39,138 nt of DNA, taken from the UHGV virus genome UHGV-0198113; one strand, 5' to 3'. The notes below the pieces were generated by a model, which worked only from the letters and a program-made list of their open reading frames with translations, searched no databases and was not told the origin of the DNA. Source of the stretch: a virus. Below, piece by piece: positions 24,321 through 37,204 of the stretch (the stretch's first letter is position 1; each line of letters opens with the position of its first letter). The position numbers and the translations under genes were made by a program.

Positions 24321-26825
24321 ATGCTAAAAGTTGAACGTATTGTACTCAAAGGTTTTACGGGGATGGGATTGCACGAAATTGAAACGTTCGATTTCACTAT
24401 CCAGTCACCGACAACGATTATCCTGGGTGGGAACGGTTGTGGGAAGACCAGTTTACTGTCCGTATTTTTGCCCTTAGCTCCGGCTAAAACAGAATTCAGG
24501 GATGGGGGTTCTTACACGAATTATTGTTTAGTCGGCGATCAACGTTACCGTTTCAAAGTTGCCCGTAAAGGCAACTCGTTGGTTTGCGATATTGAGAATC
24601 TCACTACGGGAACGAAGATTGTCGAGCAAGGTAACGCAAAGGTTTACAATTCACGCGTTGAAGAAATCACTGGTATTACGAAAGAAATTAAAGAATTGTT
24701 AAACGGTGAGGTGTTGTTAACGGACGCGGGAACGGAATTACGTCGTAAATGGTTTTACCGTTTAAGTACCTCTGACCTTACTTACGCGCTAGGGTTCTAT
24801 CAGAGATTGCGGAAAAACCTCACCGTCTTAAACGGTGGCATTGAAATTACCAGTCGTAAGATCGCAGAGTTACGAACACGTGTTATTGAAAATGAAGAAG
24901 AACGTCAACAGTTAGCGGTAAGATTAAAAGGCTTGGAATCGGATTTACGCGAACTGAACCGACAAATCGAACAGCTACCGGGTTTAAATCGTGGCGTTAC
25001 TATCGAATCAATCCAGGCGTTATTAAACGGCTTAGGTCCAACTATCGACGCAATATTACAACATCGTGGTGGTTTGCCTACCGACGAACAGATACTGAAC
25101 GCACGACACAATGAAGCCACAGCACGCGAAGCTGTCGTTTCAGCAGAAACGGAAGTATCAATGTTGAATAAAGATCTGTCGTTATTGATGGACGAGTCAA
25201 CGCGACAGGATTACCTGATGCGCAATCACGAGGGTCTCAAGAACACTCTCGCACGTTTACGTGAAGTGCTTACCAAATGGGACACCGAGCATCTCTTTCC
25301 TGGACTGTTTAGTGAGAGTGCGAATTTAGACCAGCTACGTGCTGCAACCGATGCACGCGTTTGGGGCCAACGACTGGGAACAACACTGGACGCCATTCAT
25401 TCAACCGAAAAGCTCAACGTTTTGGAAGAACGTCTACTGGTGATGGATCAGAAGACCGCAGGATTGCGAGATAGACTCCAGCGCGTAGAGAATGTTTTAC
25501 AAAACTTGAACCACGAACGAAATCACTATCTGGAAACAGCAGAAGTAGATTGCCCGCAATGTCGGTTTAAATTTCGACCTGGGGTTACGCGTTCTTTGTC
25601 TGAACTTGAAACCTCGATTAGAGGCCAACAGCAACAACGTACGGAGCTTCAAACACAGTTAGACAGTATATTACGCGATCGTGTCGAACTGGAATCTGAT
25701 GTAACGTATATGCGTCAGGTTCGTGAAATCGTGTTGACGTACTCAAAGGACCCGGTTTTAAGCATGTTCTTTAAGTGTCTACAAGAACGTAATGTCTTTA
25801 CAGAATCACGCGAACAGTTCGGAAGTCTCTGCGCGGCTTTTGACAGTGAGCTGTATTCTGCTATTGAATATCATGAAACCCGTCAACGGTTAGTGAAGGC
25901 AGAAAAAGAATGGCAAGATGCGGTAGCTGCTGTGGGTAACGTCGATGGTGCTTTACAACAGAAAATTGCTTTCCAACAATCGCGTTTAGGTAAAGCCACA
26001 GAAACGCTCTCAGTGCGTCGTAGAGAGCACGAGTTAGCTAATACGACACTTACCTATCTAGAGAGCGTTAAACGTGCTATAGACGATTTTAGCGCGTTAT
26101 TCGAACGGTTAGAGAATGACGTTAAGGTTACTTTGACAAACACAGTTGTCGAAGAACTCTTACGGGCACGAGAAGGGAAACTGGATGCGTTTACGACAGC
26201 ACGTGAGCGTTATCGTCAAATGGAAAGTGAACTGAATCAGCTCAATACGTTGGAACGCGAACTTGCGGATTTACAAGCCCAGCAGTTTAATAACAAATTG
26301 ATGATTCAGGCGTTCTCGCCAGAAAAAGGTGTACTCAGAAAGTATTTTTACAATGCTATCGTCAGAATCACAGAGTTAATGACGCGCTATATCGAACAAG
26401 TCTGGACGTACCCCATGCGAGTTATGCCTTGTGATCTCACCGACGGTGATTTGGATTATACTTTTCCTGTCCAACTAAAAACACATCCTGAACCCGTTCC
26501 TGATGTGCGTAAAGGGTCTAAGGCACAACGTGCTATATTCAATCTGATGTTCAGACTGACTGCGTATAAAGCGTTGAAATTACATCAGTTTCCTTTGCTA
26601 TTGGATGAACCCTCAGAGGGTATGGACGAAGAACACCGTAATAACCTGGTTGGTTTTATTAAAACGTTAGCAAACTCAGGGGAGTTCTCGCAGTTACTGG
26701 TGGTCTCCCACGAAGCTGAAGTCCATTCTAAACTTAACGAAGCATCGTACTGTGTCATTGAACCGGAAGGGGTGACATTACCTGCGGTGTATAACGAGGG
26801 AGTAAAAATTGTTTATGCAAACTGA
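24321..26825 (+). CDS. Rad50/SbcC-like SMC-family ATPase with coiled coil and CxxC zinc hook (~834 aa)
   Basis: Track ORF 24303-26825 trimmed to the ATG 5 nt after GGAGG. Walker A 'GGNGCGKTSLL'; mid-protein 'CPQC' hook within predicted coiled coil; C-terminal Walker B/D-loop 'LLLDEPSEGMDEE' and 'LLVVSHE'. Confidence 0.8.
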   Translation: MLKVERIVLKGFTGMGLHEIETFDFTIQSPTTIILGGNGCGKTSLLSVFLPLAPAKTEFRDGGSYTNYCLVGDQRYRFKVARKGNSLVCDIENLTTGTKIVEQGNAKVYNSRVEEITGITKEIKELLNGEVLLTDAGTELRRKWFYRLSTSDLTYALGFYQRLRKNLTVLNGGIEITSRKIAELRTRVIENEEERQQLAVRLKGLESDLRELNRQIEQLPGLNRGVTIESIQALLNGLGPTIDAILQHRGGLPTDEQILNARHNEATAREAVVSAETEVSMLNKDLSLLMDESTRQDYLMRNHEGLKNTLARLREVLTKWDTEHLFPGLFSESANLDQLRAATDARVWGQRLGTTLDAIHSTEKLNVLEERLLVMDQKTAGLRDRLQRVENVLQNLNHERNHYLETAEVDCPQCRFKFRPGVTRSLSELETSIRGQQQQRTELQTQLDSILRDRVELESDVTYMRQVREIVLTYSKDPVLSMFFKCLQERNVFTESREQFGSLCAAFDSELYSAIEYHETRQRLVKAEKEWQDAVAAVGNVDGALQQKIAFQQSRLGKATETLSVRRREHELANTTLTYLESVKRAIDDFSALFERLENDVKVTLTNTVVEELLRAREGKLDAFTTARERYRQMESELNQLNTLERELADLQAQQFNNKLMIQAFSPEKGVLRKYFYNAIVRITELMTRYIEQVWTYPMRVMPCDLTDGDLDYTFPVQLKTHPEPVPDVRKGSKAQRAIFNLMFRLTAYKALKLHQFPLLLDEPSEGMDEEHRNNLVGFIKTLANSGEFSQLLVVSHEAEVHSKLNEASYCVIEPEGVTLPAVYNEGVKIVYAN

Positions 26826-26994
26826 TTGGTTCCGTCGTTCGATGAGCGCGGCGGGATTTGGCTTTATGGTCATTTTGGCAATACTTTACGTCATGTTTTG
26901 CGTGGTAATGATTTTATGGGTAGTTTCATCGTATTCGATTAAACTATTCTGGGGTTCGATTTGGCGTCAACGCGAATGCGAGTGGCGGAATTAG
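26815..26994 (+). CDS. small hydrophobic membrane peptide (~59 aa)
   Basis: Track ORF 26809-26994 trimmed to first ATG; TM segment 'FGFMVILAILYVMFCVVMILWVV'; overlaps the end of the ATPase gene (possible coupling); weak RBS. Confidence 0.4.
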   Translation: MQTDWFRRSMSAAGFGFMVILAILYVMFCVVMILWVVSSYSIKLFWGSIWRQRECEWRN

Positions 26995-28991: not shown

Positions 28992-29091
28992 ATATTATCA
29001 TTAGGGCACACAACAAAGGAGTATTAGCTGTCCGCGCCGTCATTTCGTCTTACGGAATACGGAAATGTATAAATCCAACTGGAGAAGCAAA

Positions 29092-29790
29092 ATGTTTCGT
29101 ATCTTCTTTCTTTTACTGGTAACACTTTTCGCGTTTAACGCACAGGCGTCAACGTCAACGCCACAATCTAAGCATCATCGTGAGTTTGCACAAATCCAAC
29201 ATCGATTCGAAAAGGTCAGTCCTTTAATTGTGGAAATCTCCCGAAAGCAAGGCGTTGATCCTAAATTGATGGTTACGCTGATTTACCGTGAATCGCGTTT
29301 TGATCCTAAAGCTTACAATAAAAGCTCAAGAGCACACAGCCTGGTACAGATGGTTCCGAGTACCAAACGTAATTTGCTAAAGCTTTACGGAAAAGAATTA
29401 GGTCTTAGTCAGAACGCCGATTTGTACAATCCGCGTAATGCTGTTTTGCTGGCTGCCGCGTATATTAAGCATCTTGAAAAGGGGTTAACTAAACGACTCA
29501 AACGCAAGCCCACCATGGCTGAAGTTGCGTTAGCTTACCACTGGGGTGAAAGTGGTGCACACGCACGAATCAAAAGCAAATCTCGAGCAGCACAACGAGA
29601 AATGGCAGGGTTTATGAAAGACGCAGCATTTTACAGTGCGAAAATCGATGTACCTGCTGCTGTGGGCTCGGCTCCACGTCAGCTTGCGTTTGCGAAGAAG
29701 TCACCACGTCAGATTCAATTGGCGGAAGTCAGTAGAATTTGGGATACGATAAACACGAGTTTTCCAATCAATAGAGGAGTTGCCCTTTGA
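29092..29790 (+). CDS. exported lytic transglycosylase (SLT domain) with Sec signal peptide
   Basis: Track ORF 29065-29790; start moved to the ATG with GGAG RBS at -7 (29065 is an alternative). Signal 'MFRIFFLLLVTLFAFNAQA'; SLT signature 'RESRFDPKAYNKSSRAHSLVQMVPST' (catalytic E-S, Q-M/LMQ-type motif). Confidence 0.75.
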   Translation: MFRIFFLLLVTLFAFNAQASTSTPQSKHHREFAQIQHRFEKVSPLIVEISRKQGVDPKLMVTLIYRESRFDPKAYNKSSRAHSLVQMVPSTKRNLLKLYGKELGLSQNADLYNPRNAVLLAAAYIKHLEKGLTKRLKRKPTMAEVALAYHWGESGAHARIKSKSRAAQREMAGFMKDAAFYSAKIDVPAAVGSAPRQLAFAKKSPRQIQLAEVSRIWDTINTSFPINRGVAL

Positions 29791-30360: not shown

Positions 30361-30840
30361 ATGATAAAATTTATTTGGCGTTATCCAACACGTTTTTGGT
30401 TTGTGGTACTTGAGTTGTTTATGATTCTTGCGGCGGTTACTTTCGTTAATGCGCCTGCTTCGCAGTTAACTATATTCTGTTTATTCGTAGCAATCCCTGT
30501 ATGGGTTATCGCAAAGATTATTAAGTTCTTCATGATTAGTTGGGCGAATTATACGTGCCCGTATAAACCTAAAGAAATCATGAACTGGTTAATGTACATT
30601 GAAGATCGCTTACCAGCGCAGCATAAAAGCCTGGGCTGGGAGTCGATGTTAGATATTGCGTTAGAAACTAATGCGAAATTCCCCGGTTCGAAGAATCCGT
30701 ATTTGTTACTGGCGGTTATTGTTGCGCAACAGAAACGTGCAGGCGATCGATGGTTGCCGGAAGAAGCAAAAGAGTATATCCGTAAACACCCAAAAGCTTT
30801 CTATTCAATAGGACAATGGCGTAATCTGCCACTATTTTAA
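30361..30840 (+). CDS. membrane protein with two N-terminal TM helices (159 aa); holin-like candidate
   Basis: Track ORF; AAGGAG RBS; TM segments 'FWFVVLELFMILAAVTFV' and 'LTIFCLFVAIPVWVIAKIIKFF'. Confidence 0.7.
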   Translation: MIKFIWRYPTRFWFVVLELFMILAAVTFVNAPASQLTIFCLFVAIPVWVIAKIIKFFMISWANYTCPYKPKEIMNWLMYIEDRLPAQHKSLGWESMLDIALETNAKFPGSKNPYLLLAVIVAQQKRAGDRWLPEEAKEYIRKHPKAFYSIGQWRNLPLF

Positions 30841-32495: not shown

Positions 32496-33869
32496 TTACT
32501 CCTCGTCTAACTCGGTGTACCATTTCGCTTTCCGAGACAGGATACGGTATTCTACGTTGTCGTATTCAAACACCCAGAAGTAGTTATCAGGGTCAGCTTC
32601 ATCGACCAATTTTACCACATCCAAACTAGTCTGATACGGATGGTACTCTTCTGCGGCAATTAACGCTTGGAAGAATAATGCCAACCATTCAGTCGTGGTT
32701 TTCGACATACGGGCAATATCCGGGTTAGTCGTCGCAATTAACGCATAATCCGGGATAGTTTCATGCAACGTTGCTTTACGCGTGTCATTCTCAGGACCAC
32801 TAATGACGACACAGTTTAGTGATTTATAAACCGTCGGTAGATCGGTTACATCCGTTGTAGGTTTACTAATTGTATTAGTATTTCTTTCTGTCACCGTCTG
32901 ATCTGACCATTCCCCAAACCGTGTAATGGCTTTGACCCAGAAATCATATGGAAGGATGGGGGAATAAAGTGCCGCCACATCTTCCTCATTGGGTATTCCA
33001 CGAATTTTCCACCCAGGAACAATTGTAAATTTCGTCGTGGTGAAAATTTCAGGAAATACTTTTACCCCAATCGGAACGGTAAAACTGGAGTTAGCGAGAA
33101 TGTGTTCTCGCAATGCCTGTTTTATTTTCGTTGGGTTTTTTCCTGCGCGTCCGTAGATAATAACCGACATTGGAACTACCAGCGTGGACTCGTAGTTTTC
33201 TTGATCGTGCCAAGTATAGTAGTTAGTTTGAATGGCGGTATATGGAAAACCCGCCATTAACTCGTTGATTTTCTTATGGTGTTCGGTAAGGTTAAACCCT
33301 TCCATTGCCTTTTCAACGACGGACTTGGTCGATAAGAATGTGTCGATTGGTGAAATCGGCATTTGTACCTCGATTTCAAAACCTGTGTAGTCTTGGTCGA
33401 AGTCTTCATCCGAGAACCAAACGATGATTTGGTTATTTACATCAGTTGCATCTTGTACTTGTTCTGCTGTTGCTTCAAACTTCCAGCTAACCCAACGTGG
33501 GAACCAGTTTCCGTTAGTCTGGATCATTGCACCAGATTGAACACCGGAAATGGTTGATTGGAATTGGCCTAATAACAGGCGCTGGAATTCAAGCTCGTCA
33601 TTTCTCAGATTCCCCAAGATCGCTTGCTGGTAAATCCATTGAGAAACGGTTAGAATATGATCAGAAAACTCGGCTGGTACAACAACCGTCTGTTTTTCTC
33701 GTTTAGACGTAAATGTCACCAATTGCACTTGCAAGTTGGCTTTAGTAAACGTCTGTTTACTCTTCGCGTACGAGAGGGTCAAATCAGACAGCTCGCCCAC
33801 CGGAGCGGTGACGCCGTCCTGATTGTCAAACAGAGCCGGTATCTGAATAAAACCTTGTAAGTCTAACAT
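32496..33869 (-). CDS. hypothetical protein (457 aa)
   Basis: Track ORF; start is 25 bp from the divergent plus-strand gene at 33895. Confidence 0.7.
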   Translation of the reverse strand: MLDLQGFIQIPALFDNQDGVTAPVGELSDLTLSYAKSKQTFTKANLQVQLVTFTSKREKQTVVVPAEFSDHILTVSQWIYQQAILGNLRNDELEFQRLLLGQFQSTISGVQSGAMIQTNGNWFPRWVSWKFEATAEQVQDATDVNNQIIVWFSDEDFDQDYTGFEIEVQMPISPIDTFLSTKSVVEKAMEGFNLTEHHKKINELMAGFPYTAIQTNYYTWHDQENYESTLVVPMSVIIYGRAGKNPTKIKQALREHILANSSFTVPIGVKVFPEIFTTTKFTIVPGWKIRGIPNEEDVAALYSPILPYDFWVKAITRFGEWSDQTVTERNTNTISKPTTDVTDLPTVYKSLNCVVISGPENDTRKATLHETIPDYALIATTNPDIARMSKTTTEWLALFFQALIAAEEYHPYQTSLDVVKLVDEADPDNYFWVFEYDNVEYRILSRKAKWYTELDEE

Positions 33870-33894: not shown

Positions 33895-34398
33895 ATGGGT
33901 TCATTTCTTAAAGTGCTTCCGTTCTTCCTTCAGATGTTAATGGAAGCATTTAAACCAGGAGAAGGAGAAAACGTATCAAGAGCAAGCAAGATAATGACTT
34001 TAATCATCACGATCTTGTTATCATATTCGGGCTTCGTCTCCTACGCGTATGTGCAACAATTTCACGCACTCGTTTCGGTGCAGTCTCATGACGCATATAT
34101 GACGCAGTCTTATCAAGAGATGAAACAAGATCGTGATAAGCTGAAAGAAGATAATGGCAAGTTATACGACAGACTCTTCGTTTGTCTCGGCCAGAAACCG
34201 CCATATGAAAGCACGTTCAACCCATCGAAAGAGAGCGGTTCGACGAAGGATCTGACGCCAACAAAACCAGAAACTCCTGTTAGTCCGGCTTCAACACCAG
34301 AACAACGCAAAGAAGCATCGGCGAGACCTGTGGGTAGTTTAGATGCAAACAGTTTTCGACAGGAGATTATAAAGACGCTAACGTCTGCTAAGGAGTGA
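33895..34398 (+). CDS. membrane-anchored protein with periplasmic coiled-coil-like and Pro/Thr-rich region (167 aa); i-spanin-like architecture
   Basis: Track ORF; GAGGTG RBS; single TM 'IMTLIITILLSYSGFVSYAYV' (res ~33-53) then 'SYQEMKQDRDKLKEDNGKLYDRL'. Confidence 0.65.
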   Translation: MGSFLKVLPFFLQMLMEAFKPGEGENVSRASKIMTLIITILLSYSGFVSYAYVQQFHALVSVQSHDAYMTQSYQEMKQDRDKLKEDNGKLYDRLFVCLGQKPPYESTFNPSKESGSTKDLTPTKPETPVSPASTPEQRKEASARPVGSLDANSFRQEIIKTLTSAKE

Positions 34399-34401
34399 TT
34401 G

Positions 34402-34857
34402 ATGAAAACGCTGTTATTCATCATGGTTGTATTCATGGGTTTGGTGAGTAATAGCTACGGCGAAGAGGTCAGACGGGCAGCTTATCGTCCATTGGAACCT
34501 CCTCCGACACCACCCATCATGGTGAATTGGAAAATTGACAAAGATGCAATGCGTGAGTATGTTGCAGACGTCAACACCTATGCTTATTACGTTTATGTCT
34601 ACACACGAAATTTAAATCAGCAAGCCGCTAAACGTGGCTGGAGCCCTCCGATGTTGGCTCCACTCTGCGAACGTTATGAGTTACCGAAATTACATGTTGT
34701 GCCTGAACGTTTATCACTCGATGAAAGTTCCTTAACGCCGCAAGAAATTAGTCGGGACTTATCACGAAAACTTAACAGTTTGTTGTGGAATTACCGTTCT
34801 GACCGTCAGACCTTACTCGATTCGTACAATCAATACTTGACGACGTGTTTGTACTGA
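34402..34857 (+). CDS. exported Pro-rich protein (~151 aa)
   Basis: Track ORF 34399-34857 trimmed to ATG 6 nt after AAGGAG; signal-like 'MKTLLFIMVVFMGLVSNSYG'; 'PLEPPPTPP'; no lipobox Cys. Confidence 0.65.
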   Translation: MKTLLFIMVVFMGLVSNSYGEEVRRAAYRPLEPPPTPPIMVNWKIDKDAMREYVADVNTYAYYVYVYTRNLNQQAAKRGWSPPMLAPLCERYELPKLHVVPERLSLDESSLTPQEISRDLSRKLNSLLWNYRSDRQTLLDSYNQYLTTCLY

Positions 34858-34861
34858 CACT

Positions 34862-34902
34862 CCCTCCTGTATCCTTCGGGATACAGGAGGGTCTTTCTTT
34901 TT
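34862..34902 (+). terminator. rho-independent terminator with C(UUCG)G tetraloop
   Basis: 13-bp stem CCCTCCTGTATCC/GGATACAGGAGGG, TTCG loop, followed by TCTTTCTTTTT. Confidence 0.85.
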
Positions 34903-35683: not shown

Positions 35684-37204
35684 ATGAAGAATGTTGATGT
35701 TGCTGTAATTTACACGGACGGTAGCCATTTGACTTCCCCGCTCGGTACAGGAGCGGGGATTCATGGGTACTTATTTAATCGTGAAGTGATTGAGGATGGT
35801 CGGGTTTACCGCCATCCCTCTATTCCCGAGGGGATTACGACGTCGGGATACCGCCAGATAAACAAGGATGAAAAACTCCCTCCTTTGCCAGAAACCGTGG
35901 AGTTTATTGACGGCGTTGTTCCTGTACCAAAAATGTCACATTCTGACGTTGCAGAACTCGTGGCTTTTCTAACTGTTTTCGAACACGCGCCCTTCGTTGC
36001 GAAAAACTATGTTATCTATATCGACGCTTCTTACGTTGTTAACACGTATAACGATTGGATTGATGGTTGGGCAGCACGAGGATGGCGTCGTGCAGACGGT
36101 ACACCCATTGCGAACTTGGAACTAATCCAACGGATGTGGGAAGTCAAACAGCGGTTAAAGAAAGAAGGGAAGGGTATCCGTGTCCTTAAAATTAAAGGTC
36201 ACTCAGGTCGTTATGGAAATGAACGTGCAGACGAACTAGCACGGAAAGGTTCAAGTATCTCTGCGCGTGGCGAAGGGTTAGACTATACACCGTATTGGTC
36301 AAAAGACGAGATGCCTGAAGAAGATCAGCAACCGGAAGTTGTTGGTGAAGGCGTCAATTTATCTGCATTCCCTGAAATCTGCGTCACGAAGTTTTGTTAC
36401 CCGATGGTAAATGAACCACACCCCACGGTTACTGTAAACGGTGAGAAACTGTATTACATGTTTGGCGGGAACCACGCAAAACAGAAAGACGATATTGTCT
36501 TCGTCGGGAAATACATCCCTGATGCGCAGTTCTGCGTGATGTTTACCAAAGAACCGTGGACTAACGTATACGAGTTAGTAAACACCCACTCTGCAAAAGC
36601 ATGGGAAGGTGTACCACGTTTACGTCAGTTTGATCCCATCGCAGTGGTTTTTAACTTATTCGTAAAACGTAAGAAGTTTGCAGAAGCCGCAGGTAACGGT
36701 ATCCCTATCGACAGAATGCACTTTAGCGAAGACAAAAACTTGTGGATGTTTGAAGATCTTTCGATTACACGAATTCTTCGTCCTGCGTTATTGTCTTATC
36801 GCTGCATTGCAATTCGTGATGAACTTGCAGGTTGGTTACGTGATGCAATGGAGCAGAAAAACTCGGTAGTGTTAAACGATATTACCGACATGCTTTACGA
36901 TGAGAAAGGTAAACCGAAGAAAGACTTTTATCGTAACGTAGATAAAGGTTTTGATGTAACTATCCATATCCCTGGAAGCAAAAACAAGGTTAAAGCCATC
37001 CTTACTCGTGGTATCGATGTTCCAACACGTACGGAAATTAACCGCTTAAAAGAACCCGAAGGTCGTTTTTACGTGGCTGTCCGTCGTCCAGAACGTCAGT
37101 ATATCGAGTATGCATTGGTTTATATCGGGGAAAAATATCATGGATTGTGGTGCGGTTATTATTCAAACAAACGAATATTGACAGATAAGGAGCTTGAATG
37201 CTAG
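35684..37204 (+). CDS. RNase HI-like domain (N-terminal ~195 aa) fused to a ~310-aa C-terminal domain of unknown function
   Basis: Track ORF; motifs in order matching E. coli RNase HI catalytic residues: 'VIYTDGS' (D), 'VAELVAF' (E), 'YIDASYV' (D), 'KGHSGRYGNERADELAR' (H, D). Confidence 0.8.
   Translation: MKNVDVAVIYTDGSHLTSPLGTGAGIHGYLFNREVIEDGRVYRHPSIPEGITTSGYRQINKDEKLPPLPETVEFIDGVVPVPKMSHSDVAELVAFLTVFEHAPFVAKNYVIYIDASYVVNTYNDWIDGWAARGWRRADGTPIANLELIQRMWEVKQRLKKEGKGIRVLKIKGHSGRYGNERADELARKGSSISARGEGLDYTPYWSKDEMPEEDQQPEVVGEGVNLSAFPEICVTKFCYPMVNEPHPTVTVNGEKLYYMFGGNHAKQKDDIVFVGKYIPDAQFCVMFTKEPWTNVYELVNTHSAKAWEGVPRLRQFDPIAVVFNLFVKRKKFAEAAGNGIPIDRMHFSEDKNLWMFEDLSITRILRPALLSYRCIAIRDELAGWLRDAMEQKNSVVLNDITDMLYDEKGKPKKDFYRNVDKGFDVTIHIPGSKNKVKAILTRGIDVPTRTEINRLKEPEGRFYVAVRRPERQYIEYALVYIGEKYHGLWCGYYSNKRILTDKELEC

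Follow-up and report, generated by a model that had tools for sequence, protein, structure and literature searches.

Two small genes at positions 33,895 to 34,857 of the virus genome UHGV-0198113—ORF1 and ORF2, for open reading frames 1 and 2—probably specify a conserved, lysis-related envelope complex of the chimalliviruses, the jumbo phages that form a nucleus. The whole stretch of this DNA that was analyzed, 39,138 nucleotides long, is referred to here as the window. ORF1 encodes a bitopic inner-membrane protein, and ORF2, just downstream, a protein secreted to the periplasm. The arrangement is that of a two-component spanin, but the lipid anchor that is central to spanin-driven membrane fusion has proved dispensable: the phage of the window lacks it, and lipid-anchored fusion is ruled out there. 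A canonical, membrane-fusing spanin is disfavored for this reason, and it is about an even bet, by our estimate, that the pair is instead an envelope module centered on ORF1, one that possibly controls or senses lysis.

Spanins are recognized in genomes almost wholly by a signature—a gene for a type-II membrane protein with a gene for a lipoprotein next after it—and the family described here carries that signature across the Chimalliviridae, candidates for phage therapy included. It is set apart by its coexistence with the validated spanin of phiKZ, by the double loss of its lipid anchor under selection, and by its occurrence without the partner. Either the signature over-calls spanins, and hides a conserved envelope complex of nucleus-forming phages, or disruption of the outer membrane can work without lipid anchoring. 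The choice bears on the means by which SPN3US-like phages get through the outer membrane; they have no spanin candidate besides this pair. The two proteins fall into families that are already defined but have no assigned function (PHROG 8719 and 8165). What appears to be undescribed so far is their link to gp156.1 and gp156 of phiKZ, the loss of the lipobox on two occasions, and the way in which the pair contrasts with the spanins validated in phiKZ.

Loss of the lipid anchor

A preliminary description of the window had pictured a spanin-like pair: a protein with an N-terminal transmembrane anchor and a helical, Pro/Thr-rich periplasmic region, followed 3 nt after its stop codon by the gene for a signal-peptide protein with a ‘PLEPPPTPP’ stretch but no cysteine after the signal peptide. 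Most of this anatomy stands. Hydropathy and the AlphaFold2 (AF2) model agree on the anchor and the periplasmic region of ORF1, and a single transmembrane segment is present, although it lies at residues 33–53, behind a 32-residue cytoplasmic segment, and not at the extreme N-terminus. ORF2 does begin 3 nt past the ORF1 stop, it does contain the stretch (RPLEPPPTPP, residues 30–39), and its first cysteine is residue 89, with no upstream extension possible.

The N-terminus of ORF2 reads MKTLLFIMVVFMGLVSNSYG↓EEV (arrow, cleavage site), and the signal peptide, which ends ...GLVSNSYG↓E, has no cysteine in it. The same Cys-less signal peptide, GLVSN[SG]YG↓[ED], is carried by six independent relatives (P0001, P0002 and L004–L007; 78–92% identical), and so the absence of a lipobox is not a sequencing error. 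A lipobox hidden behind an upstream start or a frameshift was considered and rejected: the ORF2 frame opens at 34399, and the six relatives agree. Rejected, too, as a lipobox cysteine was Cys11 of L004, L005 and P0002 (MILC↓V), since Leu is unacceptable at –1 and the window has Phe in its place. A six-frame lipoprotein scan of the 39-kb window returned no credible lipoprotein ORF; it recovered the phiKZ controls, gp141.1 and gp156.

Textbook lipoboxes are found in all of the next-closest homologs of ORF2: LLVGC↓N in phiEaH2 and Stratton, LLTGC↓P in SPN3US, LLVGC↓S in pEa_SNUABM_29, LLAGC↓V in Wellington, LLTAC↓S in Huxley, LLVAC↓S in ChrisDB, and MLTGC↓S in CR5. Among 1.84 billion representative proteins, a hidden Markov model search picked out 45 ORF2 relatives; where the N-terminus is intact, a lipobox is present in 41 of 44 lineages. 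Asp at +2 occurs in none of them, so the lipidated relatives are expected to be sorted to the outer membrane. The only exceptions are the window clade and P0052, a distant member (MRYLIFLLAFSASA↓VDL) encoded on contig L023 with the same synteny and a terminator of its own. The lipid anchor has been lost at least twice, independently, each time leaving a good signal-peptidase-I (AXA-type) site: SYG↓E in the window clade, ASA↓V in P0052. The lipobox thus appears as the ancestral state of the family, and ORF2 of the window as a derived, lipobox-less member.

In the window clade the change can be followed at the level of codons. Ser16-Asn17 of ORF2 (AGT AAT; Ser16, 34447–34449) aligns with the Cys-Asn (TGT/TGC AAC) of phiEaH2 and L012, and comparison with these two and SPN3US makes Cys to Ser at position 16 a single transversion. 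From the site of the anchor to the motif residue N58 there are 37 residues in the window, versus a median of 49, and a range of 27–97, among 37 members that have a lipobox.

Both genes have nevertheless been maintained. Within the lipobox-less clade the ratio of nonsynonymous to synonymous substitution rates (dN/dS) is 0.06–0.08 for ORF2 and 0.11–0.13 for ORF1, with dS ranging from 0.3 to saturation; purifying selection of this strength, at such high dS, means that both were functional long after the lipobox was lost. These values bear on the simplest of the alternatives, that unrelated ORFs lie side by side by chance, or that ORF2 is the decaying pseudogene of a former lipoprotein. Neither protein has an annotated function, as such an account would have it, but the data on conservation and selection effectively refute it: dN/dS is 0.06–0.13, the two genes keep their adjacency, order and spacing in all lineages examined, the ribosome-binding site of ORF2 is coupled to ORF1, the pair has a terminator of its own, and the AF2 model of ORF2 is a confident one. 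We find the account scarcely credible.

One slot, from SPN3US to phiKZ

The source of the window is an SPN3US/phiEaH2-like chimallivirus. It is related to Erwinia phage phiEaH2 and Salmonella phage SPN3US, with DNA identity of 77% or less that is confined to the neighboring virion gene; protein identity is at most 60% for ORF1 and at most 50% for ORF2. The virion structural gene (32496–33869, – strand) is transcribed divergently from ORF1 and ORF2, which are followed by a Rv2179c-like exonuclease gene and an RNase H gene (35684–37204). The virion gene is of the gp157 type, core gene cg46, and RNase H is cg47; the published table of chimallivirus core genes has gp157 (cg46) and gp155 (cg47) in it, but not the genes between. 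ORF1 and ORF2 form one bicistronic operon with its own strong terminator, and an equivalent hairpin lies 3′ of the pair in L023.

The slot has the same order in phiEaH2, SPN3US, CR5, four metagenomic lineages and phiKZ. Common to all examined members is a block that comprises a SMC-like gene, a few small genes, a SLT transglycosylase, DUF7194, the virion protein (~440 aa, other strand), an ORF1-type gene, an ORF2-type gene, the exonuclease and RNase H. ORF1 and ORF2 are adjacent in 58–62 phages of the SPN3US, Erskine, Agrican and Derbicus types, and their adjacency, order and spacing are kept across all lineages that were examined, SPN3US to phiKZ. A sub-alignment search for further loci added one from IMG/VR and none from metagenome contigs. 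Vertical inheritance at one slot throughout the nucleus-forming jumbo phages—as what may be called the phiKZ gp156.1/gp156 family—is the best explanation.

In phiKZ itself, the virion gene gp157 points away from gp156.1, gp156 and gp155, the last of which encodes RNase H, so that the slot and order are those of the window, with a bitopic protein first and a signal-peptide protein next. The bitopic protein, gp156.1 (PHIKZ_p47), has a helix, IKALLFVWPFLK, at its N-terminus, then a transmembrane domain (TMD) and another, short helix; unlike ORF1, it is only 96 residues long and has neither a Cys nor the Pro/Thr linker. Read from its true start, gp156 (PHIKZ156) begins MSRKFFLILLPLISGC↓V; further on it has two more cysteines, one of which is three residues short of the C-terminus. 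Unlike ORF2 of the window, it has a lipobox (LISGC) and no Tyr-rich helix 1. The ORF2 family profile matches gp156 in hhalign at 96.5% (E = 9.7e-10, 66 columns), with both cysteines in register; with a 7-sequence profile only, the value is 75%. For the ORF1 family and gp156.1, hhalign gave no significant alignment (12 and 45 sequences). The LP..FL motif of the amphipathic helix of ORF1 occurs, however, both in gp156.1 and in gp247 of the Escherichia phage Goslar.

From phiKZ to PhiPA3, Phabio and Psa21, gp156 is kept at 29–37% identity. The filtered table of a phiKZ transposon-sequencing study has zero disruptive insertions in gp156 and gp156.1, and likewise in gp154, gp155 and gp157. We found no paper that mentions phiKZ gp156, and no record or paper searched assigns a role to the proteins of PHROG 8719 or 8165; the phiKZ pair being uncharacterized, its likeness to ORF1 and ORF2 identifies a family, not a role. 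Goslar departs from the pattern. Its slot (L031, 39665–40216) holds a single gene, gp247, for a 183-aa bitopic protein. This has LKALPWLFPFL in its N-terminal helix, then a TMD and a long coiled coil, and its two cysteines are C-terminal. There is no ORF2-type gene or lipoprotein within 42 kb.

ORF1, an inner-membrane protein with a conserved cytoplasmic helix and transmembrane segment

The start codon of ORF1 is an ATG that follows the ribosome-binding site GAGGTGA, and the protein matches the profile of phrog_8719 (function unknown) over its full length (E = 1.1e-59). Homologs occur in 62 phage records, in all of which they are annotated as hypothetical. The AF2 model, built from 28 sequences, has a mean predicted local distance difference test score (pLDDT) of 69. 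The protein begins with a cytoplasmic amphipathic helix, after which comes a conserved KPGEGE loop. The single hydrophobic segment is preceded by positive charges (R29, K32) and has, toward the periplasm, a set of invariant polar residues: V48, S49, Y50 and Y52, then Q55 and H57. The helix that contains it runs on without a break into the periplasm as a stalk of predicted length roughly 7 nm, which ends at Cys97 (codon, 34183–34185), a residue conserved in at least 90% of homologs. The stalk may well be a homodimeric coiled coil, linked by a disulfide at Cys97; a DivIC-like family of TMD-plus-coiled-coil proteins gives a weak match, E = 0.021, that falls below the Pfam cut-off.

Beyond the stalk comes a disordered linker, which is the variable block of the alignments and differs between relatives in both length and sequence. 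A further AF2 helix at residues 135–142 is followed by the conserved C-terminal helix, which we suggest is the docking site for ORF2. The RPVG...N.FRQEI..TL motif here is invariant within the SPN3US-like group, and distant members end ...I/L-x-x-I-N-G.

What is unusual about ORF1 is where its conservation lies. The invariant residues are L8, P9, F19, G24 (these four among 28 homologs), K32, L36, V48, S49, Y50, Y52, Q55, H57, Y68 and P128, and, P128 apart, they are concentrated in the cytoplasmic helix, in the TMD and next to the membrane. In i-spanin families, the inner-membrane components of two-component spanins, the TMD is reported to be the least conserved part (PMC6139136). ORF1 would be an atypical i-spanin, because its cytoplasmic helix and TMD are the most conserved parts.

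ORF2, a predicted secreted helical hairpin

ORF2 most likely starts at the ATG at 34402, 6 nt past the AAGGAG Shine–Dalgarno sequence; the TTG at 34399 that the ORF list gives is a less likely start. Cleavage by signal peptidase I is predicted after Gly20, on the –3/–1 small-residue rule only. A flexible, Pro-rich linker then leads to an antiparallel hairpin that AF2 models well (mean pLDDT 88.5; 47 sequences): helix 1 (47–77), which is rich in tyrosine (YAYYVYVY), a 35-residue loop with Cys89, and helix 2 (113–146), followed by Cys149. The two cysteines are the sole invariant residues of the 47-member family. In the model they stand side by side, with a DSSP bridge between residues 88 and 150, and they probably form an intramolecular disulfide that staples the hairpin. 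The family motif is D.N.Y..Y.F.Y....N.YA...GW.PP...P.C, and ORF2 of the window, which ends ...TTCLY, has the marks of the family: the two invariant cysteines, GW.PP...P.C, and the C-terminal C-x-[YF]. Several faces of helix 1 bear aromatic side chains, too many for a hairpin of two helices to bury them all.

Pfam and NCBIfam returned no significant matches to either protein of the pair. Against the PDB, a fold search with the ORF2 model returned nothing with E <1; against BFVD it matched only ‘lipoprotein’ or uncharacterized proteins of jumbo phages (Kwan, Noxifer, RP12, PA7).

Table 1. Features of the ORF1–ORF2 locus, in window coordinates
Feature	Position	Strand	Basis or comment
ORF1, 167 aa, bitopic (N-in/C-out) inner-membrane protein	33895..34398	+	ORF list, PHROG 8719, AF2
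ORF1 residues 2–19, cytoplasmic amphipathic helix LKVLPFFLQMLMEAF	33898..33951	+	AF2; hydrophobic moment 0.43
ORF1 residues 33–53, transmembrane segment	33991..34053	+	Hydropathy scan; within continuous AF2 helix 29–99
ORF1 residues 54–99, predicted periplasmic helical stalk (46 residues)	34054..34191	+	AF2 helix, pLDDT 88–91
ORF1 residues 100–134, Pro/Thr/Ser-rich disordered linker	34192..34296	+	pLDDT <50 at 104–131
ORF1 residues 149–164, conserved C-terminal helix (N-FRQEIIKTL)	34339..34386	+	AF2
Shine–Dalgarno AAGGAG for ORF2	34390..34395	+	Inside the end of ORF1; translational coupling; same arrangement in L004–L007
ORF2, 151 aa, secreted periplasmic protein	34402..34857	+	phrog_8165, E = 1.3e-42 (full length, function unknown)
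ORF2 residues 1–20, Sec signal peptide (n-region MK, h-region TLLFIMVVFMGLV, c-region SNSYG)	34402..34461	+	Sequence
ORF2 residues 21–46, flexible Pro-rich linker	34462..34539	+	No secondary structure in AF2
ORF2 residues 47–146, antiparallel helical hairpin	34540..34839	+	AF2, pLDDT 89–98
ORF2 Cys89 codon	34666..34668	+	Invariant in 47-member alignment
ORF2 Cys149 codon	34846–34848	+	Invariant in 47-member alignment
Intrinsic terminator	34862..34891 or 34901	+	Terminator scan: 13-bp stem, 8 GC pairs, TTCG tetraloop, T-run; closes the two-gene operon

A small, all-helical periplasmic protein, apparently stabilized by a disulfide, would also suit another function: superinfection exclusion, or protection of the envelope. 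ORF2, tethered to the outer membrane or free, would bind something that an incoming phage brings with it, such as a tail lysozyme or tape-measure protein, and ORF1 would hold it at the inner membrane, in the manner, by analogy, of T4 Spackle/Imm or of the lipoprotein exclusion systems Llp and Cor. A binder or inhibitor could tolerate the loss of a lipid anchor—the MliC/PliC lysozyme inhibitors come in lipidated and in soluble, signal-peptidase-I-cleaved forms that belong to one family and have the same function—and this phage encodes SLT/lysozyme domains that are Sec-exported and others that are tail-borne. MliC/PliC set a precedent for the two forms of ORF2, but their fold is a beta-sandwich, unrelated to the helical hairpin, and no homology to them was found; nor does the ORF2 model match the fold of Spackle or of any solved inhibitor. 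Exclusion genes, moreover, are usually accessory, variable and mobile, whereas this pair is inherited vertically, family-wide, at a fixed core position, and its phiKZ counterparts are without disruptive transposon insertions in plain laboratory growth, where exclusion would be dispensable, albeit with polarity as a possible cause. We consider an exclusion role improbable.

Spanin, or a complex of its own?

The pair was compared with two-component spanins by the criteria of Kongari et al. 2018 (PMC6139136). ORF1 has the type-II topology of an i-spanin, with a single N-terminal TMD, and the conserved 32-residue cytoplasmic segment ahead of this is unusual. Its periplasmic domain is helical (AF2 helices 54–99, 135–142 and 149–164, with the disordered linker between). 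ORF2 lies where an outer-membrane component, or o-spanin, should, directly downstream; it is not a lipoprotein, as its counterparts in 41 of the 44 related lineages are. As for disulfides, C97 could link an ORF1 homodimer, and C89 and C149 appear, in the model, to pair within one molecule.

Set beside lambda Rz/Rz1, the ‘separated’ PseT.3/PseT.2 of T4, and phiKZ gp141/gp141.1, the pair is similar in its type-II protein, helical periplasmic domain and periplasmic Cys, and, on the side of ORF2, in the position of the gene, the N-terminal export signal, the Pro-rich stretch and the lipoprotein relatives. It differs from them in that ORF2 has no lipobox, but a folded 100-residue hairpin, the disulfide of which appears to be intramolecular; in the conservation of cytoplasmic helix and TMD in ORF1; in its location outside any lysis cassette; in its lack of sequence similarity to any spanin family; and in its coexistence, in phiKZ, with a validated spanin. 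A unimolecular spanin of the T1 gp11 type was considered as well, and rejected: neither ORF has an N-terminal lipobox together with a C-terminal TMD.

No spanin family in Pfam (E up to 10) or NCBIfam (E up to 1) matched the pair, and when gp141 and gp141.1 of phiKZ were compared by tblastn with SPN3US and the window, only noise came back. These two proteins are the validated spanins of phiKZ; they complement lambda RzamRz1am (PMC12894885), and are present in SpaninDB (PMC6139136), in the searched portion of which SPN3US and phiEaH2 were not found. A redundant spanin is unlikely to persist for so long, and the retention of gp156 beside gp141/gp141.1 therefore speaks against a spanin role for the pair.

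It could be, even so, that the pair is the real two-component spanin of this group of phages, and that in the window the o-spanin works without a lipid anchor, making contact with the outer membrane by way of helix 1, which is rich in Tyr and Trp, or by way of a partner that resides there, and still disrupting that membrane at lysis. Kongari et al. allow explicitly for outer-membrane anchors other than lipoproteins, as a possibility (PMC6139136), and the exposed aromatic residues of helix 1 exceed what the hairpin buries. Gene architecture and topology are canonical, there is a helical stalk with a Cys near its tip, like that of lambda Rz, and stalk, linkers and hairpin are together long enough, we estimate, to span the periplasm. 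A SLT endolysin homolog and a holin candidate with two TMDs are encoded 3–5 kb upstream, and no other pair in SPN3US combines a transmembrane protein with a lipoprotein; this is a Salmonella phage, in which one would expect a spanin to be needed. Lambda Rz1 requires lipoylation for its function, however, and here the lipobox has been lost twice, independently, with constraint unchanged. The phiKZ-like phages hold the pair in addition to their validated spanin, Goslar does without the ORF2 partner, and a role in anchoring only would leave the conserved cytoplasmic helix and TMD of ORF1 unexplained, besides which neither protein is related in sequence to any known spanin family. We think a lipid-free spanin rather unlikely, and place it second after the envelope module.

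Several points weigh against the reading that we prefer, that of an ORF1-centered module. The lipidated relatives fit the operational definition of a ‘separated’ two-component spanin, the signature of which is a lipoprotein gene, a rarity in phages, just after the gene for a type-II membrane protein whose periplasmic part is helical and contains cysteines. A six-frame scan of the whole SPN3US genome found two lipoprotein genes only, the ORF2 homolog and ACQ60_gp107, and the ORF1–ORF2-type pair (ACQ60_gp062 and ACQ60_gp061) is the only spanin-like arrangement there; homologs of gp141, gp141.1, gp142 and gp143 were not detectable in that genome. The phiKZ proteins, gp156.1 with its 96 aa and gp156 without helix 1, could be the repurposed relic of an ancestral spanin. 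ORF1 is matched with gp156.1 and with Goslar gp247 by position, architecture and the LP..FL motif, and the profiles are silent. The lack of transposon insertions in phiKZ may mark important genes or may reflect a polar effect on RNase H, polarity being possible because no clear terminator separates gp156 from gp155. Finally, the ORF1–ORF2 interaction, the dimerization of ORF1, the cleavage of the signal peptide and the disulfide are all inferred, and a role in the timing of lysis is conjectural.

Of the spanin-like character given to the pair in the preliminary description, then, the anatomy and tight coupling survive, while canonical membership fails for want of a lipid anchor and of a match to any spanin family. 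Its hedge, ‘atypical envelope-spanning pair or unrelated periplasmic complex’, named the right alternatives, and the balance has since moved from an odd spanin towards a distinct, conserved envelope complex, because of the origin of ORF2 in a lipoprotein family, the link to gp156.1/gp156, the confidently predicted ORF2 hairpin in place of a short Pro-rich peptide, and the conserved helix and TMD of ORF1.

How the module might work

If the ORF1-centered module exists, it might be built and operate as follows. ORF1 is predicted to insert into the inner membrane N-in/C-out, its cytoplasmic helix lying in the plane of the membrane and its TMD continuing outwards as the stalk, and it would dimerize by way of the stalk and a Cys97 disulfide. 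ORF2, exported by Sec, is predicted to fold as a two-cysteine helical hairpin, and the flexible linker and amphipathic C-terminal helix of ORF1 would capture it. In the relatives, the resulting complex would bridge the inner and outer membranes; in the phage of the window, ORF2 would be soluble, a cap that only the inner-membrane stalk keeps in place. ORF1 might then act in the inner membrane, or signal across it—in the control or timing of lysis, for example, beside the Sec-exported SLT encoded 4 kb upstream—with ORF2 serving as its periplasmic regulatory or sensing subunit.

There is something of a parallel in the holin T and antiholin RI of T4, where a single-TMD, N-in/C-out protein with a short cytoplasmic helix has a small secreted partner that can do without a lipid anchor. 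The likeness is one of topology only: the proteins show no similarity in sequence (Pfam) or in fold (PDB, E <1), most ORF2 relatives are outer-membrane lipoproteins and RI is not, and the genes for T and RI are unlinked. The holin of phiKZ has been identified as gp142 (PMC12894885).

A broader proposal can be entertained tentatively, although we would not favor it: that the pair is a trans-envelope device found throughout the nucleus-forming jumbo phages, separate from their spanins, with the helix and TMD of ORF1 as the business end. On that proposal, ORF1 might be, for example, a sensor for lysis timing or lysis inhibition, or the trigger of the SLT endolysin, and ORF2 would be an interchangeable sensor cap—lipidated in the outer membrane, soluble as in the phage of the window, or absent as in Goslar. 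A spanin that manages without an outer-membrane lipid anchor would be just as new.

Other genes and records

The SLT of the window (29065–29790) is a lytic transglycosylase (Pfam PF01464, E = 1.5e-15) with a catalytic domain similar, by tblastn (E = 1.5e-8), to that of gp144, the endolysin of phiKZ. In place of the peptidoglycan-binding domain of gp144 it has a signal peptide that can be cleaved off, ...FAFNAQA↓S, and Sec-exported SLTs are encoded at the same position in SPN3US, L023, L026 and L028. The signal peptide would give this putative endolysin a route of export that is independent of a holin. Two genes downstream of it, at 30361–30840, is a gene for a 159-aa protein with two adjacent TMDs (12–30 and 36–54) and no family match, a candidate holin or pinholin; SPN3US has, at this place, the 86-aa, two-TMD protein ACQ60_gp066.

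ACQ60_gp107, the second SPN3US lipoprotein (NC_027402, 137623–138114, – strand), is 163 aa long and begins MKRLFIVFAIINLLAGC↓V. Its gene lies 1.6 kb from that of the annotated endolysin, gp110, and has no membrane-protein partner. It was considered as a unimolecular spanin of SPN3US and rejected, there being no C-terminal TMD.

Farther upstream in the window, a 61-aa ORF with a very hydrophobic TMD (26809–26994; mean Kyte–Doolittle 3.1) overlaps the end of the 840-aa SMC-like gene, and in SPN3US a comparable small gene, ACQ60_gp079, is annotated there. Between 20281 and 23017 are six successive small ORFs (129–161 aa), each with a signal peptide of the signal-peptidase-I type, such as MKTFIAFLVTLLTFGLNNAYA↓A and MKNIINTLLVAIAVLFTANVTA↓K. 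Several have paired cysteines, and the six look like a cluster of secreted periplasmic proteins.

Certain GenBank records of Salmonella phages (at least P0008, P0031 and P0059) contain homologs of ORF1 and ORF2 in blocks of ~20 residues (60 nt) that are scrambled and largely reversed. P0027, P0084, P0085 and P0087, long proteins in which 10–16% of the query is aligned, were grouped with these from hit tables only. All of these proteins come from Salmonella phages SPFM8, 10, 12, 14 and 20, and the scrambling looks like an artefact of the records.

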